Under the pieces are notes generated by a model, which saw nothing but the letters and a program-made list of their open reading frames with translations, did no database searches and was not told the DNA's origin. A DNA stretch of 63,041 nucleotides, filler included, from Craspedostauros australis (Eukaryota), in the NCBI GenBank assembly GCA_030167865.1. It is 22 parts of 22 records of this genome, joined end to end, with 100 filler letters (N's around TTAATTAATTAA, not from the genome) between each part and the next. Parts side by side here need not be neighbours in the genome. Positions count along the whole stretch, not along the records: positions 28,005 to 34,489 come from JALAGF010000666.1; 21 more parts are not named here. One strand, 5' to 3'. How positions within the stretch are numbered: position 1 is the first letter of the stretch; each line of letters begins with the position of its first letter. This document shows, piece after piece, positions 18,129 through 54,984 of this stretch. The position numbers were made by a program, and so were the translations under genes.

Positions 18129-20474
18129 AAATAATCTTTGGCTTGGACGCAGGCCGTGAAGAGTTCCACTTCCCATCTCGAGAAATTACCTGCGTTGTCT
18201 GTGATCTTCCTCACGCCAACAGTGGAAACGTATCCATCTGCGAGATTGCTCGATCCCTCCGCCACAGTTGTGAGTGATGGGCAGAATTTCTGATTGGTTG
18301 GATTGGGTTGGAGCGATTTTGTCTTGTTGATCGTTTCCTCAAGATCGGCGCATGCCTCCCTCATCTTGAGAAGAGCTTCTATCAGCGCATTGTCTATGTA
18401 CAACGTCTTCACCAGGGTCTCCCACTTTGAAGCATCGAAGCTGTCGAGTGCGTTCAATTTCGAGACCAGTTGATGACGCTCGAGACCAAAGTCTGCATCG
18501 ACTACATTGGTTGTCAAGTTCTCCCAACGCTTCAGCTTGATGCGATCGTCACGGGCGTCTTCACGTCTCTCCTCTTCCTTGTCTATCCACGCTGTGACCT
18601 CACCCGTGGTGTTGGGGTCAAAGTTCTTGGGCTGTTTTCGTTCGGTCGGTTGGATGAGGTTCATTTCAGACCGCTGATGGTACATTCCATTCATCGCGAG
18701 ATCAGACCAAACAGCAACAGGTTTCACACCTTTCAGCGCGTCCCATGCCTCTTTCACGGGGTCTGGCTTGCCGGCAGTGCCTGTTGTGGACGATTTGAGC
18801 TTCATTCCAAGGGTATCCTCGACGATGGATTGGATGCATGTCCTGTTATCCAATGAGACGGTCGTGGCTGCAGTGATGGCAGCACCAATGATCTGCGTTG
18901 ACAACGCCTCGTAGGCAAATGGTGTTGTTCCGAGAAAGCCATCTTCACCGTTTAGACTCCTCCCCCTCTCCAACAGCCACACACTGAAGAGTTGAATTGC
19001 CTCATCCACGATGAATGGCTTCTCCAGTGTCGGTTGACCGTTGAAGGTTTCATTGATCACGGTGTTGTTGTTTGTATCCAAAACAATTTTGTCGAATATC
19101 GTGAACGGCTCGGGTGTCACCAGTCCATACTTCGTGACGAGATACCACATGATCCGCTTGTTATCCATTCCAAAGTCCTCAAAATTGATTCTATAGTCGA
19201 GATCCATCGCATGTTGCCTTGCTCTTTCGATGTCCATGGGCACGGTGAAGTTTGTTTGATACAGAAGAATCGCAAGTGCCTGTGCCGCTCGCAGAGATCG
19301 GTCGCTACCTTTCTCTTCAAAGTNCCTATCNNCCCACAGANCCGCCAAGCCATTGCTTNTCGCGAATTTATCAAACACCAACGACANCAACCTCATCTCA
19401 TCGCCNAGCTCGCCGAACTTCAACAGCGTCTCTGTCAGCTGGTTGACCAAGATCGAGGCCATCCTTGCATTGTGTGATGCGATGATGCTCAGGAATGGCG
19501 TCTCCATAATCTTGTCGTAGGTGGGAAGCCTGGACTGTTTCTTTAGGTTTCCGTCGTATCCATTGCAAAGGGCTTCGTACACTTCCTTGGGATCCTTTTT
19601 GGCACTGGGTTCAAGACAGACGAAGTTGTCGCTTAGAGAACCGACAGCCCCACCGTACATTCCGGTACCTGCGATGGAGAAGACCACCTCGATGGCTGAC
19701 AGGGTGTCGAATACTGGGAGCCCGCCATCATCCGTGCTGTTTCCGTTCTTCACGTTTCCAATGGCCTTGTTTATGATGTAATGACCGAGATCTCTTCCAA
19801 GGTCTTCATAGTTTCGAATGACCTCTTTCGCAAGATTGGGACAGTACCTTGCTTCATCAATGGCAAACACTATCCGAATCCTGTCGTCCTCCACCTTCGG
19901 GTCTTCTTCGTTTCCAGTCGTGTTGCCTTTATCGTCTCTCAGGCGTTGCTTCTTCGCATCGAGTGCACGCAACCGCTGCTGCACCGTGTTTACGATCGTT
20001 GATAGCACCTCGCCGTTCTTTTTGAAGAAGTGATCATCCATACATTTCTTCAAATAAGCCCGGCTCTGATTCGTCCGAGCTTCGCTTGCTTGCGCCGTCG
20101 CTACGTCATTCTCTGCGACGTACATCAGAGTGATGACAGCATCTCTTGACTCTGCACTTGTGGCCAAATCGACTGTCTTGCCTGTGCCGCTGCCGGAAAA
20201 GAAGACACGGACAATGCTGGATGCTGCCGGTTCCCTATATTGGGTGAGATGCACTCTTTGGGGGATTCCATGTTTGTCGCCCATATGTCGGAAATTGCAT
20301 TCGCCGACGTAGTATGCTACTTTTGTGGCAGTGCCATATTTCATGCGGCGAAGAAAATGCGTTGTGCCTTCCCGTACAGCGGTGAAGAGCCTCTCGAGGC
20401 TCTCCAGTACCGATTCGCGGAGATCCACTTTTGGGTTATCGAGTCCACCGAGACCCTTGATCGACTTCCATGCG
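18129..20474 (-). CDS. P-loop NTPase + PD-(D/E)XK-like nuclease protein (Crinkler/RHS-like), family member 1, partial at both ends
   Basis: Frame open across the contig. Walker A SGSGTGKT and Walker B IVFAIDEA, then FSIAGTG and HNARMASI. C-terminal AEGSSNLADGYVS...ACVQAKDY. Collinear with 28153-32352. Confidence 0.8.
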
Positions 20475-20574: not shown

Positions 20575-22134
20575 TTCCGTGGAACCTGAACACCAAACTT
20601 GAAGATAGGACCTTGTGCACGTGTTTTGCGTTTACCAGCATTGATGAGACGGTTGAGTGTCTTCTTTCTCTTTGCTAGTTTACGGAATCGCTTCCAGCCA
20701 GGCAGACCGAGGAGGTTGTTGTCTGCGGCGTACTTTGCACAAGATACAGGGTCNNNNNNNNNNNNNNNNNNNNNNNNNNNNNNNNNNNNNNNNNNNNNTT
20801 CCATGGTCACACTGCCATCCTCCCATTGTACCTTTACGTTGTAGGAGGAGCCATTGTACTTGCTGTGATTGGAGTGGAATGGACCTTCATGACCGGTGAT
20901 GGCTTTGAAAACGCACATCTCCCCATCGCCGATCTCCTGTTCGTGCTGCTGTTCGATAATGTCAGCTAAATCCGTGTACGCGATGAGCTCTTCAGTGTCG
21001 TCGTCGCCGTATGCGATGAGCATCTTGATGTTGTCATGGTTGGCTGCGTCTCCATCCTTGATCTTGCGGATCACTCGAGCTCTCCACTTGAGGCCATCCT
21101 GTTGATGGAGGAAGGTCAATCCGAGCAGCTCATCAGGACTGAACTTGGGGACTTTGACTACACCTGGATCTGATTCTCCATGTGATGTGGCTACCAGGTC
21201 AGATAGTGCATGCACAACGGGTTGTCTAGGCTTAGGTGTGCTGTCACTATCGAGGTCTTCTGGATTTTCGGTTTCGCTAGCTTCGTCACCCACGTCACCA
21301 TCCTCCCCAGAATCAGGCAGGGGGTAGTCTGCCCGTAGGTTTCGCGCGTCATCAGACACACGTCGGATGCTTGAGCGTGGCAACAGCCGTTGTGTCGCGT
21401 CATCTAGAACCCAGAACGTCAGTTCATCACCCTTGTGCTCGCATGGTCCAGCCCAGCGTCCACGCCGTTCCTGCGCGGTGCCTGGGAAGGCAGCGTTCCC
21501 GACCTTGTAGTACACTGGCTCCCACCAGTGGAAGCTGAGGTACTTGCTCACGTCGGGACGTTGGCCTGTGGCGGCTTGGATGGGCGTGATGTGACCGGCC
21601 GTGGACTGGGACAGATGGTTGAACAGCCCCACGACGTACAAGGTGCAGATGAGCCAGAACCTGGCAGGGGTGCCAGCTCGGTCCATGATGCCGTTGGTGG
21701 TGCGCTTCACATCCTGGATGCGCCGCTCGACAGGATTCTGATGTTGGTGGTGTGGTTCGGACTGGTGGTCTGCGATGCAGTACTGCCGGAGGATGTCCTT
21801 CATCTTGCCCCCGATCTGCGCCGTGGCGTTGTCGGACATCAACACGTCCATGGCACCATGCTCCCGAATGAAGTCCTGCACAACACGGGGAACATGGGAT
21901 TCGCTTGCCAGAGGGTACGCCGCTGTGAGGCGCGTGTTGGATCCTACAAACACCTGCACCATGGTACATCCACCGTGTCCGGGGACTCCATCATGATGAG
22001 CAGGCGTGTCAGAGAACAACGTGTCCATGGAAACAACATCGTGTAGACGACTGACATTGGCTGCGGGGAATCTAGACTTATAGTGTTTACGCATGGGATA
22101 ACGCTCAGACATGCGGTACCACTGGGTAGTACAT
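20575..22134 (-). mobile_element. CoDi-type copia pol fragment: integrase plus chromodomain-like module
   Basis: RFPAANVSRL, VSMDTLFS, LMSDNA, SEPHHQHQNPVERRIQDVKR and FHWWEPVYY. Downstream YNVKVQWEDGSVTME...YAADNNLLGLPGWK and FKFGVQVPR. Confidence 0.9.
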
Positions 22135-22234
22135 NNNNNNNNNNNNNNNNNNNNNNNNNNNNNNNNNNNNNNNNNNNNTTAATTAATTAANNNNNNNNNN
22201 NNNNNNNNNNNNNNNNNNNNNNNNNNNNNNNNNN

Positions 22235-22422
22235 ATAGTGTTTGAGTCAGTGGTGATTCATGAATGAGTGTGGGAGAAGGAGGGAAAAGAGCGATTGTTC
22301 CGTATTTGTTGGTGGGAGGTTTCGCGCCAAAATTTCGCGCCAAAATAATTTCAAGGTGCGACAAGGAACACACTGAGTGAAAAAGTAGTCCGTTCTTTAG
22401 ATGAACTTCAACTCTCCCTCTC
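22235..22422 (-). mobile_element. Polypurine tract and start of the 3' LTR of the copia element
   Basis: About 70 bp after the pol stop comes GAGAGGGAGAG (22422-22412), then T and TGAAGTTCA... (LTR start 22410), running to the contig edge. Confidence 0.7.
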
Positions 22423-22492
22423 AGTGTTGAGTCGCAGTGAAATCGTGACATCGGTGAAAACTTCATCCGTGGTTGATGTATGAATGTCTCTC

Positions 22493-24549
22493 TTACCATC
22501 CCATGATTTGGAATCGCAAGTACTGGAAAGTCTGGACGATTGATCCCTTGGTGAAGACGTCGGCCAGCTGCTCGCCTGTTGGGATGTGTTGTACACAGAT
22601 GAATCCAGCCTTGACCCAATACCAGAAGAAGTGCCATTTGGTGAGGAAGTGTTTGGTTCGAGCAGTTGGTTGGTGATTGGTGGCGAGTGAGATGCATGCT
22701 TCGTTGTCTTCGAAGACGGTGCACTGCAGGTTTGTGTGCAAGGGCATGTCTGTGCCAGCGTTGTCGATGACCTGGCGGATGAGCTGTTGAATCGGAATGA
22801 GGGTGCGCATTGCGAGGGAAAGCGCAGCATACTCAGCCTCCATTGTTGAGAGCGCGATCTCCGTTTGAAGCTTGGACTTCCAGATGAGCGGACATCCTCC
22901 TAGTTTGATGAGGTATCCGGTACGCGACTTGACCGCTGTGCGATCCTGGTCGGGCTCTTGTCTGTATAGTCCTGCGAAGTCGGAGTCAACGAAGCACGTG
23001 AGGTCCAATTGTCCAGTCGGGCGTATGATGGTACCCTTGTCCTGCGTAGTCTTCAGGTATCCCATGATCCGCTTAATCGCTTTTGCGTGTGAGCGACGAG
23101 GGTCGCTTCCGAAGCGAGCGACTTGGGAGACAGCGAATGCGAGGTCTGGACGTGTGTTGGTAGTGAGGTAGAGTAGCATGCCCACCACGGAGCGGTAGTT
23201 CCAATTTTCATCCATGGGTGGCTCATGCTCGTTCCTGCCAAGTGCGGTTTGGGCCGCGAGTGTGTCGGCTCCGCCGCATTCCATCATGCCTGTCGCCGCG
23301 AGCACCTTTTGGATGAGCCCTGGCTGTCGCAAGTGGATGTAGTCGGCTTGTGGGTCACGGTTGACTTCGATGCCAAGGAACTCGTTGAAGCTTCCTTCTT
23401 GGGTGAGTTCGAACCCCCGGTTTCGCATGGAGCGGATGAAGTCGTCTGCGAATTTCTTGGTCTTGGATGCGATGCTGGCGTCATCGACATAGAGGACTAT
23501 CATGATGCCTTCGCGGATGAAGAGGCACTGCTCCTGATCGCAGGCCGTGAATCCTTCGGCAAGGAGAGCTCGAATGAGGTGTTTGTACCACAGGCGAGGG
23601 GCGATGGTGAGGCTGTATAGACTCTTTCGTAGGACAAGGCAGGTGTTCGATCCCTTGCTTGATTTGAATCCTCGTGGTAGATGGAGGAACACCGGCTTGT
23701 GGATCTCAGCTTGGACGAAGGCGTTGGTGAAGTCGATGGATGTCGTGACCCATCCCAGGACGATGGATGTGATTAAGAAGATGCGGACGGAGGACCATGC
23801 CACGACTGGCGCATAAGTTGAAGCGTCTTCGAGGATGAGATCGCCGCGGCAGCACCATCGACCCTTGTACTTTTTGATTGTACCGTCGGGGAGGCGTTTG
23901 CGGCGGAAGACCCACGTACCTGGGTAGATCTTCTCTCCATAAGGCACAGTGCTCTTGTCGACTTCTTCCCATGTACCCTTTTCGGTGAGATCTTGGATTT
24001 CCTTGTTCGCTGCTTGCATCCATGCGTCTCTATTATCATCGCGGATGGCCTCGTCGAAGGAGAGTGTGTCTGGGTCGGAGGTCGAAGCCTTGTACGCTGC
24101 CGTTCGCTCAGAGATGTCGAGGTCGGCGCCTGTNGCGAAGTAGCTCATGAGTTGCCAGTCAACATAAGCTGGGAAGTTGGTGGCATCTGGCTGTGGCTCA
24201 ATGATGTTCACGGAGTATGCGTGTTGTTCGATGTTGGCCCAATCCTTCTGTGGGATGCAGTTGTTGGTGTCAAGGATGTAGCTCGGGTCAACTGTTAGGG
24301 TGCTTTGGAGGATGGCTTGAAAGTCAGTTTCGCGCGTGTTGGGTACGTGATGGACTGGCTCGGTGCCTCCTTCTTGCACTCCAAGGTTAAATTGCTGAAC
24401 TTCGAATCTGCTGGGTTGCTGCCATGGTCCTGGGCGAATGGTGCTGGTGTGCTGTCGCAAGGATTCGAACGCCAGCCGGTAGTTGTGGCTCTGTCCGATT
24501 GCATTCCAGATGGAGAGGAACTTTGCCTTGAACATTGTTGCTCCGAGTC
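22493..24549 (-). mobile_element. Ty1/copia reverse transcriptase-RNase H (intact frame)
   Basis: WVFRRKR...KYKGRWCCRGD, TYAPVVAWSSVR, IDFTNAFVQA, IVLYVDDA, FVDSDFAG, IALSTMEAEY, FEDNEAC and QLADVFTKG. Confidence 0.96.
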
Positions 24550-25930: not shown

Positions 25931-26596
25931 NNNNNNNNNNNNNNNNNNNNNNNNNNNNNNNNNNNNNNNNNNNNTTAATTAATTAANNNNNNNNNNNNNN
26001 NNNNNNNNNNNNNNNNNNNNNNNNNNNNNNATTGACTCGTCGCTCTTTCTGAGCAACAACATAGAGGAACAGCCTGAGGAGGCTACGATAATACTGGGCT
26101 GCAACATGTGCAGATCCCGCCATGGCCGGCACAGCCTGCATAGTGCGGTGTCTCCTTTGACTACCATGTGCTGGTGGTTTTCGATCAACACCAGAGAGAC
26201 ATCAACTCAGTGTTATCGCAAATGCGAAACTGAGTGGCAATGATGGACGCATCAAGCATGTGATCGACATGTTCGTTCCTTGAGTCGGCTGCCCATGGTG
26301 GTGGTACAGATCCTGGGTCAAAATTCCCGCTTCGCGACTTCACTGTATACGGAACAGGCACGCAGTAGCACGACTGCTGGGGGAAATGGACATGATGTGA
26401 TGAGACTAACTGCAGACGCGCCGTGTTCCAGCGTGTTAATCTGCCTTCGCTTTGTTTGTTGATCTGTTGTTTTGAGCGTCACGGAACGCATTCGCTTTTC
26501 TCACAAAAACTACAATTCGCACGATTAACACACGATTACAACACAGACAACAACAGCAACCAAGACGAGTATACCAACGCATGAAAGACAACCACC

Positions 26597-27904
26597 ATGG
26601 CAGGAGCAGCAGCTGAGATACAGAACTACCTTCGAAATGTGCTACTGTTTCCAGAAGATGCAATGGGTCAAGCGTTGAAGGAGCAAGGGATTGCGTCATT
26701 CGACGACCTGCTCGCCTTTGATGATGACGAGATCCAAGGCTTATGCAAGACAATTCGACAAGGCAGTGGCTACATTCAGAACCCATCATTCGTACCCTCA
26801 AAGCCAGATACTGGAATACCGACGATGATCAAGAATCCAGGAGTGCCTTTTGGATGGGTCTACGAACAGCGATTGCGACAACTTCGATATTTGCGATTTC
26901 ACTACAGCCGCATTCAACGGACTTTCACGTCTTCGAACGCCACACTATCAAGATTGAAGAGTGTGTGGAGCTTGTTCAAGGAAGAGAAACGCATCAAGAA
27001 AGCGGACCCTTTGCCAATACCAGAATTGCTTACCAAGATCGAGAATGTCAGGGAAACATTGGAGGACATCAAGAACTATTTGGAGAATACGCTTGGAAGC
27101 AGGGACGTGCCTTTGGCATACGTCATTCGGCCAGATTCGGCAAAACCAGAAGACAGATCTCCGCCTGTGATACAAGGATTTGGAGAGCCGACATTATTGG
27201 ACGAACTCATTGATCGAGCACCACACGTGGACTTGACCTACAGGACAGACAATGCAGCAGTTTGGCAAGTGATCCGAGCTGTGACACATGGAGGCCCAGC
27301 GTGGAATTGGGTGCAAGGATTCGAACGATCCAAAAATGGACGCGCAGGACATCAGGCGTTGGAGCAACACTATCGTGGAGACTCTTACCAAGCGAGAACG
27401 AAAGCGTCAGCAGACAAGATTATCGCAGAGTCTTACTTTGATGGAAAAGCACGAAACTTCACGTTCGAGACTTATGCGCAACGACTAAATGCAGCCTTCG
27501 AGGACCTCGCACAAGGTGGTGAACCACAAGTCGAAGAGGCAAAAGTGCGACGTCTCACTCGCGGCATCAAGGATGACCGTCTCAAGGCAGCATGCGAAGT
27601 CGTACGTGCAACACCATCAATTCGATCCAGCTTCCACAACACAGTCAACTATTTGTCGGAATCATTGGACCAACGCACTGATACTGCAGTCAACCGACGT
27701 ATCGCAGGACTACAAGGCAATAGTCCAAAGTACCGGCGTCGCTCAGGTGGAGGCAGAGGCCGGGGTGGCAGAGGTGGTCGAGGAAGAGGTGGTGACAAGA
27801 GCAAGCCACAGTATGATGCGAATATGAAAGTCACAGACAGATATTACGATCGAGATGAGTGGGCGGCAATGTCAGCATCGCAAAGGGCTCGTGCTATTGC
27901 ATTA
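26597..27904 (+). mobile_element. CoDi-type copia Gag ORF (5' part of the polyprotein)
   Basis: VPLAYVIR, DNAAVWQVI, GRAGHQALEQHYRG, YFDGKARNFTFETY, an RGG box and VTDRYYDRDEWAAMSASQR, motifs I recognise from diatom CoDi Gag. Confidence 0.85.
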
Positions 27905-28152
27905 NNNNNNNNNNNNNNNNNNNNNNNNNNNNNNNNNNNNNNNNNNNNTTAATTAATTAANNNNNNNNNNNNNNNNNNNNNNNNNNNNNNNNNNNNNNNN
28001 NNNNCAAGGTGAGCAGAATCAAACATTGTTGTTGCTATTGATGACACCAACACTCATAACAACACTCACACCAACACCACAACTCCACAGTTTCTTGTTG
28101 CTGTCGCCTTTTCGCCTCCAATCACTTCCGCCGAACGGCTGTCAACAGCAAG

Positions 28153-31100
28153 ATGGGCGACGACGCGCCGACGGCTGAAGATGATCAAAATACACTTATC
28201 GATCTCGACTCAATCTTCAACAAAAAGGAGTTCTGGGCCGACATGTCGAACTTGGATAAGGACAAGGAAGCACAAAACCATCTGGAGGAGTGCGCCACCA
28301 AGGCCCTGAGGAAGGTTGGCGTCGTCGCCCCCGATGAGACCCGCATCAAGACGACGAGCCGACAGATTCGTTCGAAATGGGACAACTGCCGCAAACACGT
28401 TTGCGTGCAGGTGCGCAAAGGCCTTACCGCTGCACAACTGTGCGGCAATGTTGAGGAATACGCCATTGATCAGAGCTCCACCTCGGTGTCAACGTGGCTC
28501 CTGACCTTCCTTCGTGGCAAGAATGCAATCCCCCAGTGCATCCTCGACGCTATCCAGGAACCCAACGACGATGATCATCTTATCGTTGACGGTAACCCAC
28601 ACCAGTCAGTTCTCAACCTGTTGAAGGAGATCCGCGGTGAAGACCCCAAGGGCTTTCGTGGTCTGAAGTACACCTCGGACATCATCCACCAAAATGAAAC
28701 TGAATTCGCACACTTCATCGGCAACCCCAACTTTCGACATGCAGGAAAGACCGACTTGATCCCCAAACAAGTCTTCATCCAAGCGCCCACACCAACAGGC
28801 ACCCACCAGGACGAGCGGGTCCATGTGTACCACGAAGAGAGCGGTAGTGGCAAGACCGTGCAGCTTGCGGCGAGCGCATACACCAGAGGCGCTCTGTTCA
28901 CTATCATGCTCAACACCGACGATGTGAAACTTCTCCCTTCATCGAATGCTGATGAAGTAGACAAGGACGACCGAATGAACAAGTCCTGGACGAAGCTCAC
29001 AGATGAAGTCGGATCGATCCTCACGCGAGACAAAAATAGTCTCGACAGGCTTGTCGACTTCCTGGAAAAGTTGGATAAGGTGGTGGAAGAGAAGACCACA
29101 CTGTTCATCGTCGTTGGGATTGACGAAGCAAGCAAGTCCCCAAACTTCGTCCGGGCCATCATCCAGAGCCACAGTGACTTTGGAACGGATCTGGGGAAGT
29201 TCATCCAGCGCAAATGCACTGAGGAGGTCGCAAAGCAAGCCAATTCCGCTCCAGCAGGAGAAACACAAGACTCTTCGAATGCGAATGGACAGGACCTTTG
29301 TGTTCTCAATCACATTGACATCAAAGTCCTATTCTCTGTGGCAGGCACCGGTGCCGGCCAAACACCGGCGGGATCAATCCCCAAGAACTTCACTCACCTC
29401 CATATTTCTGCAAAGCTGAATCCCGCAGACGTCTACCACATTCTTCGCAGCGAATACGTGAAAGACGTGAAAGACGGCACGAATACCATCATACCAGAGT
29501 ACACAGAGGTTAAGAAGTTCCCTCTCCTCAAGGCCATCGTTGATTCCAACGCCCGGATGATCTCGATCTACATGCGAGTGTCAAACAATCGACAAAAGTC
29601 CAACCAAAGAACCGGAAAGAAGTCAAGTGAGAATGAATACGAGCAGAATGCCATCCTTTCCGAAACCTTCACCGCCTTCATGAAAAGCAATGGCTTGATT
29701 ACTCTGGTGCATAATCCTTACCTTGCGCGGCTCACAGCATCCCAGGCTTTGGCGGTTCTTCTTTTCCAACAGAATAAACCTTTCCGCAACCCGCTCACCA
29801 ATGATCAACTGAACAACATGGACTACGGGATCACCTTCCAGCGCTTCAAGGACGACGTCGACGCCGACGCCGACACCGACGCCAGCGATGCCATCATGCG
29901 TCGGTTGGTCGTCACGTATGGCTTAGTCACCGCAAGGCCACTCAAAGGTAAAGGGAACTGCACTCCCCAGGCAAAGCCATTCGCGCTCAGCGATGCCATG
30001 CAGCTCCTTTGCCTTTGGCTCATCCAAGGCGGTGAAGCAGTTGCGGCTGAGAAATCGTTTCTCGGAACAACCTCGACCAGCTTTGAAACCCTCACTGCGC
30101 TGCTGGCCGGGGCCGCCATCGCTGCGTCCTCCGTCGTCAAGAAAGATGGCGATGGGCGCGTCATTGCTGCTCCCGCCAATGGTCCCAATCCTAACACGGT
30201 TGGGCAGCAGAAAGCAGACATCTTTGCTGCTCTGGGCAAGGTCGGCATGAGCATCACACCACACCTGACAAACAATAGGTTTTCCCACTACACATGCGAA
30301 ACGACCGACGGAGACAAATGTGTGGAAAAAAACGCCGGCCATCAGTTTTCGGCTCTCAAGAATACCCACCCGGCCTTACTTCCAGACAATCTCGAAATTC
30401 CTCGGGTGTACTTCCACAAGTCAATGATGACTTCCGTCGAGAGCGGCGTGGACAAGCGGCGCATCCGGGCTGCTACTCGTACAAAATTCGAGGATGCTAT
30501 CTCCACTGCTCATATGGAAGCCGCGTACCGTGTCAGCACTGTTTCTGAACAACTCCATCAAGTCATCAACGGTACTCCTAGTGACCAACGCACGATAGCC
30601 ATCGGCGATGCTGCACAACTCATGGAAGACATCAAGACTACTACTGCACACGCCTTGGCCTGCATCACGGGTACTGCGGCACAAGACCAGGCAAACACCA
30701 ACGCTGTTGCTCTACCGGGCCTGGTAGCCACCAACGCTGTTGCTGTACTAGGCCTGGCAGCCGCCAACGCTGCTACTGCTGCTGCTGCACTAGGCCTGGC
30801 AGCCACCAACGCTGCTACTGCTGCTGCTGCTGCTGCACTAGACCGGGCAGCCAAGAACGCTGCTGCTGCTGCTGCTGCGCAAGGCCGGGCAGCCAAGAAC
30901 GCTGCTGCGCAAGGCCGGGTAGCCAAGAACGCTGCTGTGCAAGGCCAGGCAGCTGCTCTTGCGCAAGGCCTGGCAGCCGTCATGGCTGCTGCTGCGCAAG
31001 GCCTGGCAGCCACCAAAGCTGCTGCTGCGCAAGGCCTGGCAACCAAGAGCGTTGCTGCTGCACTAGGCCAGGCAGTCACCAACGCTGCTGCTGCTGCACT

Positions 31101-32352
31101 AGGCCAGGCAGTCACCGACGCTGCTGCACTAGGCCAGGCAGTCACCGACGCTGCTGAAGCACAAGGCCTGGCAGTCACCAACGCTACTGCTGCACTAGGC
31201 CAGGCAGCCACCAACGCTGCTGCTGCAAAAAGCCTGGCAGCCACCAACGCTAATGATGCTATGGTTTTACTAGATCAGGCAGCCCAGGGCGCTGCTGTTG
31301 AAGCTGCTGATGATGCACTAGTTCAGGCAGCCAAGGCCGCTGCTGCTGCTGATGCACAAGACCTGAGTGCCAAGGCCGCTGCTGCTGCTGATGCTGCACA
31401 AGACCTGAGAGCCAGGAACGCTTCTGCAGCAGAACACCTGAAAGCCGCCAAAGCTGCTACCGCAGACGCTGCGGGTGCTATTTTCCGCGGCATGGATGTA
31501 GAGCACATGCAGGCAAAAGGAATCTCGGCGTCTTCTCCGCTGATGAACATGACTGAACACGAAATCACAGCGTGGTTGGAGGACCATCATTCAATTTTCA
31601 TCGATCGCGACCTACTCCGCCAACTCAAGGTGCTCTGGGACGCCGTGGGACAATCCAACAGCGGGCAACACAACGGTCAGCAAGACAGCGGTCAGCAAGA
31701 CAACTATCAGGAAGACGCGAACCCGGCCGCCGCCCCCGCTCCCGCCAACGCATCTCACAGCACAACCACAGTGAAATATTTCTTCAACCTGCCACTCATC
31801 CACGTTGCAGAAGGTAGCAGTGAGTTCGCAGATGCCTACGTCACCTTCCTTACGGAGAAGATGGACACCACCACAGGTAAGAAGATCTACGGTTTGCGAA
31901 CAATCTGCATCCAAGCCAAAGATTACGCCAAGGATACAAGCCCAAAAATGGAAACTTACAAGAAAAATGCCTCCGCAGTGGCGAACCCCGCACTGGACCC
32001 TCTCTTTGGCGACGACCGGATCTACACTGCTGCAGGTACGCGAAACGCAGTTGCTTGGAACTGCAGGGAAGAATTTCCATACGTTCCTTTCGTGGTGGAT
32101 GATTCCAAAATCCTGGAGAATCAGATGGAAGCGATGAGTAAGCGCCGCTCCAAGACTGCAAAACATGGCGCGCATGCTGTGCTCTGCATCGGACCATCAA
32201 AAATTGCGCCATCATCCACACAAGGCGCAAACAAAAGGCCCGACGCACAACCCGTTCTCCCCGGAGAAACCAAGAAAAGAAGCATTGAACGTGGGCAAGA
32301 TGCTTCAAGCGACAGCCAACCTGCAGCAAAAAAGCAAAGACAAAGCGCCTGA
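28153..32352 (+). CDS. P-loop NTPase + Ala-rich repeat insert + PD-(D/E)XK-like nuclease (Crinkler/RHS-like), family member 2, complete 1399 aa
   Basis: Uninterrupted ORF. Walker A EESGSGKT (~28834-28857) and Walker B IVVGIDEA (~29107-29130), then FSVAGTG and SNARMISI. Nuclease-like FADAYVTF (~31825)...ICIQAKDY (~31903). Basic NLS-like tail (KKRS...KKQR). Confidence 0.85.
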   Translation: MGDDAPTAEDDQNTLIDLDSIFNKKEFWADMSNLDKDKEAQNHLEECATKALRKVGVVAPDETRIKTTSRQIRSKWDNCRKHVCVQVRKGLTAAQLCGNVEEYAIDQSSTSVSTWLLTFLRGKNAIPQCILDAIQEPNDDDHLIVDGNPHQSVLNLLKEIRGEDPKGFRGLKYTSDIIHQNETEFAHFIGNPNFRHAGKTDLIPKQVFIQAPTPTGTHQDERVHVYHEESGSGKTVQLAASAYTRGALFTIMLNTDDVKLLPSSNADEVDKDDRMNKSWTKLTDEVGSILTRDKNSLDRLVDFLEKLDKVVEEKTTLFIVVGIDEASKSPNFVRAIIQSHSDFGTDLGKFIQRKCTEEVAKQANSAPAGETQDSSNANGQDLCVLNHIDIKVLFSVAGTGAGQTPAGSIPKNFTHLHISAKLNPADVYHILRSEYVKDVKDGTNTIIPEYTEVKKFPLLKAIVDSNARMISIYMRVSNNRQKSNQRTGKKSSENEYEQNAILSETFTAFMKSNGLITLVHNPYLARLTASQALAVLLFQQNKPFRNPLTNDQLNNMDYGITFQRFKDDVDADADTDASDAIMRRLVVTYGLVTARPLKGKGNCTPQAKPFALSDAMQLLCLWLIQGGEAVAAEKSFLGTTSTSFETLTALLAGAAIAASSVVKKDGDGRVIAAPANGPNPNTVGQQKADIFAALGKVGMSITPHLTNNRFSHYTCETTDGDKCVEKNAGHQFSALKNTHPALLPDNLEIPRVYFHKSMMTSVESGVDKRRIRAATRTKFEDAISTAHMEAAYRVSTVSEQLHQVINGTPSDQRTIAIGDAAQLMEDIKTTTAHALACITGTAAQDQANTNAVALPGLVATNAVAVLGLAAANAATAAAALGLAATNAATAAAAAALDRAAKNAAAAAAAQGRAAKNAAAQGRVAKNAAVQGQAAALAQGLAAVMAAAAQGLAATKAAAAQGLATKSVAAALGQAVTNAAAAALGQAVTDAAALGQAVTDAAEAQGLAVTNATAALGQAATNAAAAKSLAATNANDAMVLLDQAAQGAAVEAADDALVQAAKAAAAADAQDLSAKAAAAADAAQDLRARNASAAEHLKAAKAATADAAGAIFRGMDVEHMQAKGISASSPLMNMTEHEITAWLEDHHSIFIDRDLLRQLKVLWDAVGQSNSGQHNGQQDSGQQDNYQEDANPAAAPAPANASHSTTTVKYFFNLPLIHVAEGSSEFADAYVTFLTEKMDTTTGKKIYGLRTICIQAKDYAKDTSPKMETYKKNASAVANPALDPLFGDDRIYTAAGTRNAVAWNCREEFPYVPFVVDDSKILENQMEAMSKRRSKTAKHGAHAVLCIGPSKIAPSSTQGANKRPDAQPVLPGETKKRSIERGQDASSDSQPAAKKQRQSA
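30690..31480 (+). repeat. In-frame coding minisatellite, ~30-42-bp units (GGCCWGGCAGYCACCAAC-(GCT)n-GCACTA/GCGCAA)
   Basis: About 20 degenerate units encoding G(L/Q/R)A(A/V)(T/K)NAAA...(L/Q); the reading frame stays open throughout. Confidence 0.9.
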
Positions 32353-32907
32353 CGGCAGCGATGAATCGCAACAACGTCGGGGCAACTGTGGGCATTGTGC
32401 CATGAATCAACAACCAGGCAGCCGGACCAAGATGGCAAATGTCGCATGCCTCGCGAAGGCCTCGTTCATCACCGACACCAACCAAAGGAGCACACCGAAA
32501 AGGGGTTCGGTGTTTCCAACCTATGCATACATGCATTCATCCATCCATACATGCATCCTTCAGAACATCTGGTGGTTCTGATGAGTTGCGCAACGACACT
32601 TTTGCCAGTACCAATGCATGGCCCTTCGGAAGAAAGTCTGCGTTGCAGTCTTACCGAGAGTACACGTAAAGTTAATCACTAGTACCAAATACACTAATAC
32701 ATGCAACACTACAAGACAAGTGCAGCCGCGAATGCTGCGCCGGCATGATCTTCACAGCGACTAATAGGAGCCCCCGAGTGAGTCGACCTGTACTCCGTTA
32801 TTGGCCTCCAGAAATTTTCTCTCCTACATACTAACTAACCACATATTTGTAATCCTTGTAGGTCTAATACAAATAATTAACCATTACAATTTTTAATTAG
32901 ATCCTAT

Positions 32908-33114
32908 TTTAAGTTTTATGGACCGATGGATATCCATGGTGAGTTTTTTCCTTCCTTTGAAGGAAGCTTTCCTAGTGCACCTTCCTTCAAAGGAAGATCG
33001 GGGGGGTCAGAGGGCCCCAATTCTTCCTTCGAAGGAAGCCTTCCTTTGAAGGAAGAATTTTGGCCTCTCAGGAGGGGTCAAAATCCCCAAAAAAAACAGA
33101 CCCCAACGCAAACA
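32908..33114 (+). repeat. Palindrome-cluster repeat module, copy 2 (CTTCCTT-NN-AAGGAAG x4)
   Basis: Palindromes at 32951-32966, 32981-32996, 33023-33038 and 33040-33055. Arms GATATCCATGGTGAGTTTT and GGCCTCTCAGGAGGGGTC...AAAAAAACAGACCCCAACGCAAACA are shared with 13467-13641. Confidence 0.85.
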
Positions 33115-34029
33115 TGACACCCCACTGCGTCAAAATAACACGGTTTTTGCTCTACGCGATACATACGGACGTTGCAACCGCAAATTTACTTCTGGTTGCT
33201 GTGCTTTACAGACTAGTACCAAAATTGAAGCACCTGTACTCTTCATGTGCACCTCCTCCATCTAATCCAATGTATCTCCTTCGACTCAAGCAAATCCATG
33301 CATCTAATATGAATGAGGAGGATGGAAAATGGTAACAGTAATCCATATATTTCTGCTATATTACTTTAGTACAGTTGCCGTCATGGTTGCTTTGCTACGT
33401 CTACATGCAAGTTGACGTTCAGACTGACAGATGAGAGAGGACGTCCCTCCTCCACGTGTAGATGAGATGGTTCCGATTCCTCTCCTCTGGTTGCGCTCGG
33501 CGTCCATCTCGGTCGTGTTTTGATCGTTTTCCAGCTGCATGAGACGTCTTCCACATGTTACATTCAATTTCAAACAAATTTCATCGAGGCGTTGAAAAAA
33601 CTGCGAAATCACTCCGTTATGTAATAAGAGTCGTTTTGGTGTCTGCAACGACAGTTCGCGGTATCCAGATTCTGGGTTGGACAGTTGTGTCCGGTTTCTG
33701 CGCCAATGAAAGTCATCGGTTTTGAGTGGCCCAGAACAAGGAACTTGGCTTTGTTTCGGCATGGGCTTGCGTCATTGTTCATGTCCATTGCACATCAAGG
33801 CACCAGGATGGGCAGAAGACGAAAAGCCGACAGCACAGCGACAACGACAACAACGACGACAGCCACGACGAAAGTGAAAATGAAAGTGACAATGCAAGTG
33901 ACAATGCAAGTGACCACAACAGCAAAGACAATGACAACATCAACATCAACAGCACAAAACCAATCTGAAAAGCCCAGCCCCTCATCATCACATCCACATC
34001 GATGCGAGAAGCCAACCCCAAAGAGTGAC

Positions 34030-34489
34030 GGATGCAGTCCGTGTCCATGCTCCATGACAGCATCACATCAACAGCCACAGCCGCATCGATCCAAGCATGC
34101 AGTCCATGTCCATGCTCTCCAACAGCATCGCATCGACAGCCACTGCGATTGAAGCATGCCGTCCGAGTCCATGCTCCATCACAGCATCACATCCACAACC
34201 GCAACCACTGCGATTGAAGCATGCCGTCCGAGTCCATGCTCCATCACAGCATCACATCCACATCCACAGCTACAGCCACTGCGATTGAAGCATGCCGTCC
34301 GAGTCCATGCTCTCCAACAGCATCACATCCACAACCGCAACCACTGCGATTGAAGCATGCCGTCCATGTCCATGCTCTCCAACAGCATCACATCCACAAC
34401 CGCAACCACTGCGATTGAAGCATGCCGTCCGAGTCCATGCTCCATCACAGCATCACATCCACAACCGCAACCACTGCGATTGAAGCATG
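34030..34489 (+). repeat. 65-bp minisatellite
   Basis: Unit GATTGAAGCATGCCGTCCGAGTCCATGCTCCATCACAGCATCACATCCACAACCGCAACCACTGC starts at 34147, 34212, 34283, 34348, 34413 and 34478. Degenerate units from ~34030. The array runs into the gap. Confidence 0.95.
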
Positions 34490-34737
34490 NNNNNNNNNNN
34501 NNNNNNNNNNNNNNNNNNNNNNNNNNNNNNNNNTTAATTAATTAANNNNNNNNNNNNNNNNNNNNNNNNNNNNNNNNNNNNNNNNNNNNCAAGGTGAGCA
34601 GAATCAAACATTGTTGTTGCTATTGATGACACCAACACTCATAACAACACTCACACCAACACCACAACTCCACAGTTTCTTGTTGCTGTCGCCTTTTCGC
34701 CTCCAATCACTTCCGCCGAACGGCTGTCAACAGCAAG

Positions 34738-36556
34738 ATGGGCGACGACGCGCCGACGGCTGAAGATGATCAAAATACACTTATCGATCTCGACTCAATC
34801 TTCAACAAAAAGGAGTTCTGGGCCGACATGTCGAACTTGGATAAGGACAAGGAAGCACAAAACCATCTGGAGGAGTGCGCCACCAAGGCCCTGAGGAAGG
34901 TTGGCGTCGTCGCCCCCGATGAGACCCGCATCAAGACGACGAGCCGACAGATTCGTTCGAAATGGGACAACTGCCGCAAACACGTTTGCGTGCAGGTGCG
35001 CAAAGGCCTTACCGCTGCACAACTGTGCGGCAATGTTGAGGAATACGCCATTGATCAGAGCTCCACCTCGGTGTCAACGTGGCTCCTGACCTTCCTTCGT
35101 GGCAAGAATGCAATCCCCCAGTGCATCCTCGACGCTATCCAGGAACCCAACGACGATGATCATCTTATCGTTGACGGTAACCCACACCAGTCAGTTCTCA
35201 ACCTGTTGAAGGAGATCCGCGGTGAAGACCCCAAGGGCTTTCGTGGTCTGAAGTACACCTCGGACATCATCCACCAAAATGAAACTGAATTCGCACACTT
35301 CATCGGCAACCCCAACTTTCGACATGCAGGAAAGACCGACTTGATCCCCAAACAAGTCTTCATCCAAGCGCCCACACCAACAGGCACCCACCAGGACGAG
35401 CGGGTCCATGTGTACCACGAAGAGAGTGGTAGTGGCAAGACCGTGCAGCTTGCGGCGAGCGCATACACCAGAGGCGCTCTGTTCACTATCATGCTCAACA
35501 CCGCCGATGTGAAACTTCTCCCTTCATCGAATGCTGATGATGAAGTAGACAAGGAAGACCGAATGGACAAATCCTGGGCGAAGCTCACAAAGGAAGTCAG
35601 ATCGATCCTCACGCGAGACAAAAATAGTCTCGACAGGCTTGTCGACTTCCTGAAAGTGTTGGATGGGAAGATGCAAGAGAAGGCCACACTGTTCATCGTC
35701 GTTGGGATTGACGAAGCAAGCAAGTCCCCAAACTTCGTCCGGGCCATCATCCAGAGCCACAGAGACTTTGGAATGGTGCTGGGGAAGTTCATCCAGTACA
35801 AATGTATTGAAGAGTTGACGGAGAAAGACATCCTCCCTCTATCAGGAGCACCACAAGGCTCTTCGAATGCAAGCAAACCGAGCCTGTTTTTTCATGAGTC
35901 CATCAACAAGCTGACAGACCTGGAACGAAGCGGACACCTCTGTCCTCTCCAGCACATTGACATCCAAGTCCTATTCTCTGTGGCAGGCACTGGTGCCGCC
36001 CAACCACCGACGGGATCAATCCCCAAGAGCTTCACTCACCTCAATACTTCTGCAAAGGCGAACCCTGCAGACGTCTACCACATTCTTCGCAGCGAATACA
36101 CGCAAGGCGGCAAGCCTACCATCATACCAGAGTACACAGAGGTTAAGAAGTTCCCTCTTCTCAAGGCCATCGTTGATTCCAACGCCCGGATGATCTCGAT
36201 CTACATGCGAGTGTCAAACGAGCGACAAGCGTCCAACCAAGGAACCGGAAAGAAGTCAAGTGAGAATGAATACGAGCAGAATGCCATCCTTTCCGAAACC
36301 TTCAAAGTCTTCATGGAAAGCAATGGCATGAAAACTCTGGTGCACAACCCGTACCTTGCGCGGCTCACAGCATCCCAGGCTTTGGCGGTTCTTCTTTTCC
36401 AACAGAATGAATCTTTCAGCAAATCGCTCACCAACGATCAACTGAACAACATGGACTACGGGATCACCTTCCAACGCTTCAAGGGTGACGCGGGCGATGC
36501 CATCATGCATCGGTTGGTCGTCACGTATGGCTTAGTCACTGCAAGGCCACTCAGAG
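34738..36556 (+). CDS. P-loop NTPase (Crinkler/RHS-like) family member 3, 3'-truncated
   Basis: Appears identical to member 2 from the contig start to 35426, then diverges. Walker A and B are retained. Confidence 0.85.
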
Positions 36557-36656
36557 NNNNNNNNNNNNNNNNNNNNNNNNNNNNNNNNNNNNNNNNNNNN
36601 TTAATTAATTAANNNNNNNNNNNNNNNNNNNNNNNNNNNNNNNNNNNNNNNNNNNN

Positions 36657-38192
36657 TACAGACCATCAACCAAGTCACTGATCTGCTCACGTGATATCAA
36701 GTGGCTCAACCAATCATACGGACAGTTCCGTGGCTGGGCATCAGTACCGAACATATCCAACGAAGCAGAAACAACAGACGCAGACGGCTTCACAACCATC
36801 GGACGGAAGGGAGCAACGCCAAGGACGACAACGCGTCAAACATCGGAAGCGAAGAGAGTATCCTTCGCTGACAGCAACAGGTACTACATCCTATCGGACA
36901 GCGACGATGAGGATGATGAAGACGATGGAATAGTGACTCAACTGATCCATAACGACGAGGAAGATCGGAGCAAATCCAATCATGAGGATGACGAGATCCT
37001 ACCATCCAGCAACGAAGCCAACGATGACACAGGCATTACTCCTCCAAACACACCAGCGAGGTCTACACATGACACACCATCCAGACCTCCACCAAGCAAA
37101 CCAAACAAGCGTGACGTAGCTAGAAAGGAGAGGATCCGACGTCATGAAGCACGAGGCAGGAAGGGAGAAGCTAATCCCAAGCCGACTACAGGGAAGAGTG
37201 TTCCCAGAGCTCTGCGTGAGCTCGCAGACTTCAACGAACGAGGTCGAAAGGAAGAAGGTTACGAGAGCGATCCATCATCCGATGAGGCGAGTGACGAGCT
37301 CAGCGACGAGATAACCGACGAATCCAACAACGAAACTACAGATGACGAAGAAATCGTAGACGAGGAAGAAGAGATCGAGATCACTCATCACAGCACAACT
37401 GGACTGTACGGAATGAATGCAATCATCACCGAAGTACCAGCGATCGACATTGGACTGTCGATGCAGGACGAGAACAAGGAACAAGAGAAGCACATCGAAC
37501 CAACAACATTCGATGGAGCCTTCAATCACCCAGATCCCATCCATCGCAAGGGATATCGAGCAGCCATCAAGAAGGAGTTCGACTCCATGGATACACGCAA
37601 GGTGTACAGCAAGATCAAACGAGACGCCATTCCACACGGCCGCAGATGCTGCAAGTGCAAATGGGTCTTCAAGTTGAAACGCGACGGCACACATCGAGCG
37701 CGACTCGTTGCATGTGGCTATTCACAAATCGCAGGAGTAGACTTCCAAGAGCATTACTCACCCGTCATCCATGACGTAACATATCGGGTCATGATGGTGA
37801 TCATGCTGATCAAGAAGATGGACTGCGCACTCGTCGATGTCGTAACGGCATTCCTACATGGAGACCTNNNNNNNNNNNNNNNNNNNNNNNNNNNNNNNNN
37901 NNNNNATCATCAACCAGACGAAGCCCTGACCCTACACAAGCCAATCTACGGACTTGTGCAGAGCGCCAGGCAATGGTTCAAGATGTTGGTGTTGACCCTC
38001 AAGAACATCAACTTTGAACAGAGCGCGGCAGACCCGTGCCTGTTCTACAGGAAGACGAACGAAGGAAGCATGATTGTGGCCATCTACGTGGACGATTGCT
38101 TCTGCTGCAGACTCCAAGGCACTGGAGACATTCCTGAAGGACATCCAAGGCAGCAAATTCAAGGTAACAATCGAGCGCGGACTCGGAGACTA
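36657..38192 (+). mobile_element. Ty1/copia pol fragment: post-integrase linker and RT
   Basis: EPTTFDGAFNH, CKWVFKLKRDGTHRARLVACGYSQIAGVDF, VDVVTAFLHGD and AIYVDDC, followed by a frameshift. Same family as 10560-12059 and 38293-39392. Confidence 0.93.
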
Positions 38193-38292
38193 NNNNNNNN
38201 NNNNNNNNNNNNNNNNNNNNNNNNNNNNNNNNNNNNTTAATTAATTAANNNNNNNNNNNNNNNNNNNNNNNNNNNNNNNNNNNNNNNNNNNN

Positions 38293-39392
38293 ATCGTTGG
38301 GATGTTGATGGGTTCTTGGCAATGAAGATCGCTCCAATGTTGTCCACACGGACCTTGATCGGTGTCTTCACTGGGACGCCCACACTTTCGAGTAGCTGCA
38401 TAACGAAGAAGATCTCCTTTGCTGCTTCAGAAAGGGCAACGTATTCTGCTTCGGATGAGCTGAGTGTGACGGCCTTCTGTGCCTTGGATCGCCAAAGGAT
38501 TGGTACCTTGCACAGGTATAGGATGAATCCCCCTACGCTGATTCTCGTGTTCTTGTCTCCTGCATATTCGCTATTGTAGAAGAGCTCCATGTCCTAGCCG
38601 TCGTCATCTGGACGTGCTGGATGGATTTTCAATCCATAGTCCTTTGTATCGATCACATACTTGATGATCCGATACATCTCCTTCATTGCGGCCTTGGTGG
38701 GCCCGATCAATACCTTGGAGAGTTCCCTCACAGGGTTCGCGATATCTGGTCGCGAGTGCTTGATGAGGAAGAGTAGCATATCCACGCCTCGGCGATATTC
38801 GGCATGTTCTTCTGGTCCGACCTTCTGTAGTCCGTTGTCTTCGGATGGTCGTACGATGATTTGGCCCGGGGTTCCTGGTGTCCCATAGCGTTGCATCTTC
38901 TCAACCTTGGTTCTGAACTCTTCGATGAGATGTCGGATGAGATGTGGTTGACGCAACGTTGCTCTAGTCTTGTCATGGTTCAGTTCGATGTTGCAGCTGA
39001 GGTAGTCTCCAAGTCCGCGCTCGATTGTCACCTTGAATTTGCTGCCTTGGATGTCCTTCAGGAATGTCTCCANTGCCTTGGAGTCTCCGCAACAGAAGCA
39101 ATCGTCCACGTAGATGGCCACGATCATGCTTCCTTCGTTCGTCTTCCTGTAGAACAGGCACGGGTCTGTTGCGCTCTGTTCGAAGTTGATATTCTTGAGG
39201 GTCGATACCAACATCTTGAACCATTGCCTGGCGCTCTGCACAAGTCCGTAGATTGGCTTGTGTAGGGTCAGGGCTTCGTCTGGTTGATGATCCATCCCGT
39301 TGGGACAATTCATGTAGATCTCCTCGTCGAGGTCTCCATGTAGGAATGCTGTTACGACATCGACGAGTGCGCAGTCCATCTTCTTGATTAGC
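38293..39392 (-). mobile_element. Ty1/copia RT-RNase H fragment with an in-frame stop
   Basis: YVDD, SRPDIANPVRELSK, then TAG at 38596-38594, and the same frame resumes with VTLSSSEAEYVALSE and RVDNIGAI. Confidence 0.93.
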
Positions 39393-45432: not shown

Positions 45433-45748
45433 NNNNNNNNNNNNNNNNNNNNNNNNNNNNNNNNNNNNNNNNNNNNTTAATTAATTAANNNNNNNNNNNN
45501 NNNNNNNNNNNNNNNNNNNNNNNNNNNNNNNNCACCAAAATCCTGGCAACGGTGTAACACAACAAGGAGGGTGGAGCACGAATCATGATTATTGTTTGTT
45601 CAATTACCACAACTGTTGCGATTATGATAGAACTAAGACATAATACCAGAACCCGAAAATCCAAAACACACAGTAACAACAATAAAATCCAAAACAGAAC
45701 ACATCAACAATTTCACGGTACTAAGTCTACAGAAGTTTGTACGCAACC

Positions 45749-53852: not shown

Positions 53853-54128
53853 CGGCGGCGGAGCCACCTCCTCACTGGGGTCCACATACATATACACACA
53901 GCAACGCCGAGTCCGTGCTCTCTTCCCGCCTAGCGGGAAGATTAAAGGAGGCGGAGAAAAGCGCCTACGGCGCAGATGCCACAGTGGTAATCTAATCCTT
54001 GCGTTATTTATTTATTTGATAGAACTAAGACATGAGTCATGTCGTAAGTCGAGATGGCCAGCGAAAAAGGGTTTGAAAAAAAACGGCTTCTCATAAAGCG
54101 TATTTGGGCGAGTCCGTTGAGTCGCCGC

Positions 54129-54240
54129 TTGCGTCCGGACGCAAATTGGCCCAATTTGCGTGGGGACGCAAACTGAGCGTCCAATTTGCGTGGGGACGCA
54201 AACTGAGCGTCCAATTTGCGTCCGGACGCAAGCTACGTAG
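54129..54240. repeat. Cluster of four TTGCGT-NNNN-ACGCAA palindromes (30-bp period) ending at CTACGTAG; probable DNA-transposon end
   Basis: Sites at 54129, 54156, 54186 and 54216. The outer two have a CCGG core and the inner two a GGGG core. Confidence 0.8.
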
Positions 54241-54901: not shown

Positions 54902-54984
54902 GGGGGACACAGGGGGGACAGAGGGGGGACACAGGGGTACACAGGGGGGACACAGGGGGGACACAGGGGGGACACAGGGGGGAC
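54902..54984 (+). repeat. G-rich 11-bp tandem repeat (GGGGGGACACA)n with G-quadruplex potential
   Basis: Eight G4-G6 runs separated by ~5-nt loops. Confidence 0.9.

Follow-up and report, generated by a model that had tools for sequence, protein, structure and literature searches.

Probable mosaic haplotypes of a greatly expanded, positively selected Crinkler-RHS-like NTPase-nuclease family in the diatom Craspedostauros australis

Crinkler-RHS (CR) proteins with C termini that combine a nucleoside triphosphatase (NTPase), a helix-turn-helix (HTH) element and a restriction endonuclease (REase) were described by Zhang et al. 2016, as relayed in parts of PMC5289972 and PMC11342252, and section 11 of PMC5289972 presents the nuclease as the toxic part and the NTPase as its regulator. 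Passages of PMC3726527 describe species-level expansion, recombination of 40-303-base fragments and positive selection (models M1a/M2a) in duplicate groups for the CRN genes of Phytophthora sojae, which are host-targeted pathogen effectors recombining at HVLVVVP. Trypanosome RHS, according to passages of PMC7563717, is a large NTPase-bearing family with chimeras from allelic and ectopic conversion and with differences between haplotypes, and over half of its copies are disrupted. Here, a gene with likeness to both was analysed in a 63,041-nucleotide stretch of the Craspedostauros australis assembly GCA_030167865.1 (the window), which consists of 22 short contigs joined by 100-base linkers. Two copies of the gene open consecutive contigs, C666 (28005-34489) and C667 (34590-36556). 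With a probability of about 0.6, we read them as mosaic haplotypes from a family of intracellular conflict nucleases of the Crinkler-RHS type that owes its diversity to ectopic conversion and selection.

The gene is predicted to encode a STAND/AAA+-like NTPase followed by a nuclease of the PD-(D/E)xK fold. An earlier annotation of the window (the sequence-only reading) had described two NTPase-nuclease copies, which holds for C666; the second copy has no nuclease domain in the window and continues on contig C1469. The header of the C666 product (P0001) has no hydrophobic signal stretch and is the part that varies most among paralogues. SGSGKT and IDEA are invariant in comparison with distant homologues, and P0001 also has the motifs FSVAGTG and NARM. 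In an alignment of 81 sequences, conservation of the D and K of the nuclease core is 90% or higher, and P0001 retains E, D and QxK. Across the family, the nuclease domain is split by an insert of 250-550 amino acids.

The folds were assigned from structural models. The NTPase model, made from the homologue P0004, matches Cdc6/Orc1, the archaeal ATPase 2QEN, CED-4 and NRC2, the first three at E 2e-4 to 9e-4, with Cdc6/Orc1 ranking equal to or above CED-4. The helical region that follows is predicted, and was aligned inside matches of about 400 columns to Cdc6/Orc1-type proteins. For the nuclease half on C1469 (predicted local distance difference test, pLDDT, 77.8), matches to MspJI, AF1548, PaqCI, AspBHI and FokI were obtained at Z 4.7-5.6, and PD-(D/E)xK-fold proteins occupy the first four VIA rows and the majority of the top 20 (Z 5.6-4.0, root mean square deviation 2.8-7.2). 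The scores of the nuclease model are modest, but the set of proteins that it matches is consistent. Three points weigh against the assignment: the NTPase model has a pLDDT of 56, the fold scores of the nuclease all fall short of Z 8, and a Foldseek search with the nuclease model returned nothing at E 0.001, with MspJI on top at E 0.014. Sequence profiles gave no family for P0001 or for the product of the second copy (P0002) in Pfam at E up to 1, weak matches only and none above cut-off for these two proteins and 51 homologues, and 0 matches in a profile search of PDB sequences. One SAP domain was found by Pfam, in the marginal homologue P0143.

The C. australis family resembles the CR class in its variable header, P-loop NTPase, helical region and REase-fold nuclease, in the placement of a Walker A/B NTPase N-terminal to the nuclease, in its multiple copies and in its occurrence in a free-living eukaryote. 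It differs in that the two window proteins and 51 homologues have no match above the curated cut-off to Pfam CR models, in that it is without the ubiquitin-like LxLFLAK header, in the split of its nuclease by the long insert, and in that its profile reaches only 185 clusters, the named ones from diatoms. Expansion, fragment recombination and positive selection are shared with the P. sojae CRN genes, but the C. australis family is without their HVLVVVP motif or a signal stretch; the oomycete CRN header model PF20147 has no match in the window proteins, and LxLFLAK and HVLVVVP are absent from the translations. With RHS it shares family size, the NTPase, conversion chimeras and haplotype differences, whereas few of its copies are broken. 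A retroelement insertion after Walker A was seen in none of 21 frames, two of which end soon after at contig ends, and the window proteins have no Pfam match to RHS.

The STAND/NLR proteins CED-4 and NRC2 are structural neighbours of the NTPase-helical module. STAND/NLR receptors also resemble this family in undergoing diversifying selection and interlocus exchange. Unlike in NLR proteins, the effector is C-terminal, with a nuclease fold, and there is no LRR, TPR, WD or ankyrin sensor; neither P0001 nor P0002 has a Pfam match to NB-ARC or NACHT. Judged by the sequence features examined, the family is not oomycete CRN, RHS or NLR. Its mode of evolution is already known from the CRN and RHS families.

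The sequence-only reading had found 28005-28841 and 34590-35426 to be identical, with the first difference at 28842/35427 inside the Walker A codons, and had placed a recombination breakpoint near it. The identity, which covers exactly 837 bases, and the site of the first difference are both correct. A search of the genome against itself revealed a third exact copy of this block (100%), the last 837 bases of contig C2229, so that the alternative named in that reading itself, an assembler-duplicated shared 5' path, applies. Such sharing is frequent: the last 328 bases of C667 (36229-36556) overlap exactly with the first 328 of C1469, which has the nuclease half, and among 43 stretches 22 overlaps of 218-1534 bases at >=99.5% identity were found, 21 of them at 100% and all touching a contig end. 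In the other two haplotig pairs of the window, head and tail are identical over 606/494 and 369/568 bases; the corresponding lengths in further pairs are 534/1534, 478/534 and 1534/457 bases. The pattern of head sharing between C666 and C667 equals that of plain single nucleotide polymorphism (SNP) bubbles.

Exact shared contig ends throughout the assembly indicate that the assembler puts shared nodes on both arms of a branch. Here it wrote one node on both arms, giving C2229 followed by either C666 or C667 plus C1469. The 837-base block is therefore a shared path and not two separately observed identical molecules; it stops at the first differing site because the shared node ends there by construction, and where it ends tells no more than the position of the first heterozygous site. 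The difference at 28842/35427 is synonymous (AGC/AGT, Ser230 of ESGSGKT), the second one follows 77 bases later, at 28919, and the first site segregates in the family, with T in 8 of 9 paralogues and C in one.

Compared at the sequence level, the coding middle of each copy is pieced together from short tracts that have their counterparts in different paralogues, whatever the direction of conversion. Between residues 230 and 598, C666 and C667 have 107 aligned differing sites; in 8 close paralogues both states occur at 70 of them, the C667 state only at 29, the C666 state only at 8 and neither at 0, which places the C667 state in paralogues at 99/107 sites. Over residues 361-680 the identity of the C667/C1469 arm with C3271 or C5719 is 94-99% and that with C666 is 77-94%; near the stop codon the arm is back to 98% identity with C666. 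The best switch lies at residues 302-305 (29056-29067), just before Walker B, with either donor, and 0/300 permutations were as strong. A PHI-type test in our own implementation gave 0/1000 permutations in each of three sequence sets. The long loop form of C667 also occurs in C3271, C5719, C4377 and C6527, and on this sequence evidence the 18-amino-acid indel is a family dimorphism. Repeated ectopic gene conversion would have made the two haplotypes diverge, and the long conserved flanks of the family may favour it.

The recombination proposed in the sequence-only reading thus stands at the level of the family, with a different position. A breakpoint at Walker A was rejected: the block is a single node, its first differing site is synonymous and segregates, and C667 remains sister to C666 until residue 302, with the switch at 302-305. 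We consider it very unlikely that two molecules identical up to a P-loop breakpoint then diverged from each other under positive selection. The 0 differences in 837 bases against 6 in 450 of the 3' flank would agree with such a history, as would the RHS hot spot five codons after the ATP/GTP motif reported in a passage of PMC7563717 and the diatom mitotic recombination between homologues reported in part of bioRxiv 2020.11.08.373134. Against it stand the single node, the silent site with T in 8/9 paralogues, the sister relationship up to residue 302 and a dN/dS ratio (non-synonymous to synonymous substitution rates) of the pair that is not significantly above 1.

An assembly chimera was also rejected as the source of the mosaic. 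The longest exact run between C667 and C3271 is 138 bases, the tracts not being exact donor copies. Public reads were available only as Logan contigs of three runs, in which depth cannot rank the parts of the gene. Run X1 holds 0.31 of the words and X2 and X3 hardly any; no RNA run is listed as holding them. One X1 contig spans 28722-29226, across the switch, with 28 other letters and 3 gap letters relative to C666, the C667 count there; X1 may be the sample behind the assembly and is thus not independent. The inexact tracts (94-99%) and this contig make it unlikely that the mosaic is a mis-join.

The two arms are likely to be two haplotypes of one locus, because a single upstream contig leads into the node (C2229 being the only one) and because the 3' junction is private to C666 and C1469. 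Both carry the 400-base trailer of the subfamily and then a junction with a 1.9-kb repeat that was seen at no other scored place, 40 of 264 candidates having been scored. Past the stop codon they differ by 6 substitutions and 1 gap over 450 bases. Run X1 has C667/C1469-type letters along the gene, plus an exact C666-type piece at 32145-32511.

Some observations weigh against allelism. The bubble stays open because C666 runs into another repeat at 32930, and no exact rejoining of the arms was found. Paralogous loci too share flanks (90-95%, 1.5 kb), so shared flanks are no proof of allelism. The contrast between 0 differences in 837 bases and 1.3% in the 3' flank needs either recent homogenisation or a second upstream path that is missing from the assembly; a recent 5' homogenisation (loss of heterozygosity) may have ended near 28842. 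The arms could instead be paralogues of very recent origin, produced by segmental duplication and afterwards subject to the same conversion and selection, the upstream region of one of them having been collapsed or lost in the assembly. This appears the less probable reading by a clear distance: nested flank-sharing groups of more than two copies, arms that never rejoin, and 3.5 kb at only 85-90% identity, a divergence far above that of other haplotig pairs, all fit it, but C2229 alone leads into the node, the 3' junction, 98% identical in the two, is private to them, and the head sharing is the same as in plain SNP bubbles.

Selection was explored with our own implementations and fixed codon frequencies, which counts against the strength of these tests, on 9 close sequences; C5637 (frameshift), C5719 beyond an N gap, C2575, C2576 and the copy at 18129-20474 were omitted. 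The sequence-only reading had described the divergence of the two copies as mainly non-synonymous and under diversifying selection. The amino-acid differences that it quoted are present in both translations, and the frame is unbroken as it stated, with pair indels of 3, 54, 9 and 24 bases, 4/4 in frame. The count is indeed 84 non-synonymous to 23 synonymous changes, a preponderance expected from the numbers of sites (821 and 253); dN/dS is 1.13 (confidence interval, CI, 0.71-1.95), and by codon maximum likelihood 1.32 (p=0.27 against 1). For C666 and C667 alone dN/dS above 1 is not significant in four tests, a further point against our interpretation, and diversifying selection is seen only at the level of the family.

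For the 9 close members, M2a beats M1a in three blocks (2dL, twice the log-likelihood difference, 54.6, 65.1 and 65.8), with a positive class of 23-35% of sites at about 4.7-6.1. In a recombining null of 100 simulations, with a new tree every 20 codons, 34/100 pass the nominal threshold and the maximum 2dL is 35.1, which all three observed values exceed. Recombination therefore inflates the M1a/M2a comparison, and nominal p-values were not trusted. In a tree-free test, columns were classed by their conservation in 36 homologues from a database search, and pairwise fits were made by grid search. In the 297 variable or inserted columns, 36/36 pairs have dN/dS above 1 (median 1.70; 27 significant), while in the 122 conserved columns 0/36 do (median 0.31; 19 significantly below 1); the 36 pairs are not independent. 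Four disjoint pairs gave 168 against 37 changes in variable columns (ratio 1.64, p=0.0055) and 32 against 39 in conserved ones, counting only single-base codon changes more than 4 codons from any gap. C666/C667 in the same test gave 21 against 9 and were not enriched. A second subfamily of 7 genes (ratio 1.38, p=0.067; conserved columns 0.51) is a weak replicate only and lends our reading less support than it might. The nuclease region is intermediate (median 1.31, 4/15 pairs significant). On a homologue model, 21 of 49 high-posterior sites lie in helices, often 3-4 or 7 residues apart, and 17 in unaligned loops, from which we infer exposed helix faces.

At the family level, these sequence comparisons show purifying selection on catalytic columns and diversifying selection on variable ones. 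Alternatively, the copies might be dispensable and evolve neutrally or under relaxed selection, dN/dS near 1 then meaning no constraint; the whole-region dN/dS of 1.00 in all three blocks (M0) and the one frameshifted copy, C5637, would agree with this. The contrast between conserved and variable columns (0.31 in the former, with 19/36 pairs significantly below 1) already speaks against it, as do the 6/6 scored indels in frame, the retained catalytic motifs and the 0 stops inside 93 matches, and we regard it as the least probable of the explanations weighed here.

A 217-amino-acid query gave 93 matches, with 0 internal stops, on 83 contigs of the genome, and the family has 48 distinct frames of >=800 amino acids; the family count is a lower bound, and some of the 93 matches are overlaps or alleles. 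A profile search of 1.84 billion representatives reached 185 clusters. Relatives with an organism name, 4 among 19 examined, come from Seminavis robusta and Bacillariaceae, diatoms only. By its ESM Atlas features, the homologue P0018 has as neighbours a cluster labelled 'Crinkler family protein' (0.94), in which 45% of the members carry PF20147, and unnamed fungal and red-algal clusters (0.98); such language-model neighbours are a lead only.

Family copies have a conserved leader of 0.8-1.3 kb and trailer of 0.4 kb, and flanks that are 90-95% identical over 1.5 kb are common to groups larger than two copies. The ends of the shared flanks are scattered over many positions, from 1 to 3 kb upstream and from 0.4 to 2.1 kb downstream, which fits segmental duplication. 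Comparison of 15 upstream with 20 downstream flanks for terminal inverted repeats gave 3 matches, 0 at shared ends, and no telomere repeats or family-wide neighbour gene were found among 27 loci. The gene might itself be mobile or lie inside a mobile element, its nuclease and ATPase serving spread and its copy number reflecting transposition. High copy number (83 contigs) and the conserved leader and trailer speak for this, as do NTPase-REase pairs linked to transposons in section 11 of PMC5289972 and the fish Crinkler-like genes that spread with hAT elements according to a passage of PMC12957317. With no inverted repeat between flanks and with shared ends that vary, as after segmental duplication, we hold it to be quite unlikely.

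We tentatively propose, at a little under even odds, that the proteins are intracellular, probably nuclear, ATP-switched nucleases of the Crinkler-RHS class acting in defence. An intracellular nuclear role is the simplest reading because there is no signal stretch and the tails are basic. The header and exposed helix faces would recognise a changing partner, either an invader protein or DNA; recognition would make the NTPase change state and release the nuclease, and the freed nuclease would cut DNA, stopping or killing the cell. Conversion would provide new specificities and selection would retain them. Of the two roles that the sequence-only reading had expected, a conflict function is plausible and self/non-self recognition is conjectural.

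The family could alternatively be a selfish toxin-antidote or drive family whose copies kill gametes or zygotes without them, with conversion creating specificities. Passages of PMC11342252 give Medea1 an NTPase-REase architecture, and passages of PMC6660238 give Spok a nuclease needed for killing, conserved untranslated regions (UTRs) and conversion tracts. The wtf genes, in passages of PMC7032740, have variable repeats and diversify through ectopic conversion and repeat expansion. Conserved flanks, mosaic copies and a haplotype-specific repeat insert are the corresponding features of the C. australis family. The likeness is by description, and drive is argued here from analogy alone; the family is without a kinase resistance domain, and no family-wide neighbouring antidote open reading frame (ORF) was found among 27 loci. 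Drive thus seems unlikely, and a defence function remains our preferred proposal.

The features of both copies are collected in Table 1. All 15 of 15 members with a start codon have a donor-like AG/GT(A/G)AG about 146 bases upstream of the ATG and AACAG 4 bases before it, which makes a conserved 5'-UTR intron at 28009-28148 probable.

Table 1. Positions in the window of features of the two gene copies and their surroundings
Feature	Position	Strand	Remarks
Artificial contig linker	27905..28004		44 N, TTAATTAATTAA, 44 N; repeated at 34490-34589 and 36557-36656
Shared assembly node, head of contig C666	28005..28841	+	Identical to C667 head and to last 837 bases of C2229
Probable 5'-UTR intron	28009..28148	+	GT donor; AG acceptor 4 bases before ATG
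Complete ORF P0001, 1399 amino acids, haplotype C666	28153..32352	+	Header, then NTPase and helical/winged-helix region, then split PD-(D/E)xK nuclease with basic tail
Variable N-terminal header, residues 1-193	28153..28731	+	36-92% identity to 8 close paralogues, 40-codon windows
Walker A (SGSGKT, residues 230-235)	28840..28857	+	
Main ancestry switch	29056..29067	+	C667 follows C666 upstream, paralogues C3271/C5719 downstream; maximum chi-square
Walker B (IVVGIDEA, D324 E325)	29107..29130	+	Same in both copies
Hypervariable loop	29238..29331	+	C667 54 bases (18 amino acids) longer
C666 tract close to a paralogue	29384..29483	+	98% to paralogue C5637, 85% to C667
First helix of nuclease fold, conserved Glu (SFETLT, E645)	30079..30096	+	
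Ala-rich repeat insert within nuclease domain	30520..31470	+	Not in other haplotype (C1469)
Nuclease core strands FADAYV (D1227), ICIQAKDY (Q1254, K1256)	31825..31926	+	From alignment and fold
Basic C-terminal motifs	32269..32343	+	Nuclear localisation signal-like (inference)
3' trailer of about 400 bases, conserved in subfamily	32353..32758	+	77-87% to other copies
Trailer junction with end of dispersed 1.9-kb repeat	32759..32933	+	C666 and C1469 only (98%), 40 of 264 candidates scored
Shared assembly node, head of contig C667	34590..35426	+	Same node as above
Second copy P0002, 606 amino acids, haplotype C667	34738..36556	+	Open at contig end

Other members of the family were noted in the window and elsewhere in the genome. 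Contig C661 carries a distant member on the minus strand of the window at 18129-20474 (GSGTGKT, IDEA, NARM, LADGYV, CVQAKDY), with 34% identity to P0001 over the NTPase region; it is open at both contig ends and contains single Ns. The second expanded subfamily (CSASGSGKTAEL; C6326, C4940, C3940, C4047 and C5773) has 59-87% identity within it, and three members have a further GxGKT-like string (GGCGKT) downstream. C5637 is frameshifted between Walker A and B, at about 2655, and C6251 (1657-3169) has two nuclease-core segments in tandem. The allelic pair C3580/C3579 has CIKAKD for CIQAKD and SFATLT for SFETLT, two predicted nuclease-site residues unlike the rest of the subfamily. The 5' flanks of C2229 (451-1353) and C2318 (4404-5305) are 95% identical, far more similar than the coding sequence, the NTPase of C2318 having dN 0.48 and dS 1.0 to C666. 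Contigs C2524, C6589 and C1880 are a mirror case of the locus described here, two arms joining a shared 1300-base node; their headers differ from each other (dN 0.25 and dS 0.23 over 170 codons) and resemble different paralogues.

Repeats surround the gene. The dispersed repeat at 32930-34489 starts sharply at 32930, as it does in about ten contigs; towards its end there are palindromic units of the CTTCCTTTGAAGGAAG type, positions 33983-34489 hold a 60-70-base tandem array, and the repeat interrupts the 1.9-kb repeat that C1469 carries whole. On C2229, a high-copy 190-base element at 265-450 recurs in more than 30 contigs at 89-98% and has an inverted match at 80-162, so that 80-450 looks, from its sequence, like a miniature inverted-repeat element. 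An ORF pair of 834 and 1930 amino acids at 45533-57225 of the window is, judging by its motifs, putatively non-LTR-retrotransposon-like (LTR, long terminal repeat). The stretches 53077-54031 and 55674-56627 form an inverted partial match (69%). By their motifs, 10560-12059, 20575-24549, 26031-27904 and 36657-39392 are putative copia-type LTR retrotransposon fragments resembling gag, integrase and reverse transcriptase.

Our literature searches returned no description of such a family for diatoms, though the supplements of Zhang et al. 2016 may list diatom members, and no well-described diatom innate immune or gamete-killer gene family; in the Seminavis genome paper (PMC7335047), the terms NLR, NTPase, endonuclease, Crinkler, P-loop and NACHT do not occur. 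It is conceivable, though quite improbable, that dozens of intact ATP-switched nucleases in a diatom-specific family are single-gene poison-antidote drivers or a cell-suicide immune repertoire, whose own cutting promotes conversion. Haplotypes of one locus would then differ in specificity and mating partners would be partly incompatible, and the driver version would place a Medea/Spok/wtf-like system in diatoms.

The identity of the two copies up to the Walker A codon is a product of assembly together with a silent site, and the biology beneath it is real. We see in the two copies probable mosaic haplotypes from a Crinkler-RHS-like family that is greatly expanded and positively selected. With 83 contigs, open frames, retained catalytic residues, patchwork haplotypes and diversifying selection, this family is a candidate for defence against viruses or parasites, or for reproductive incompatibility.

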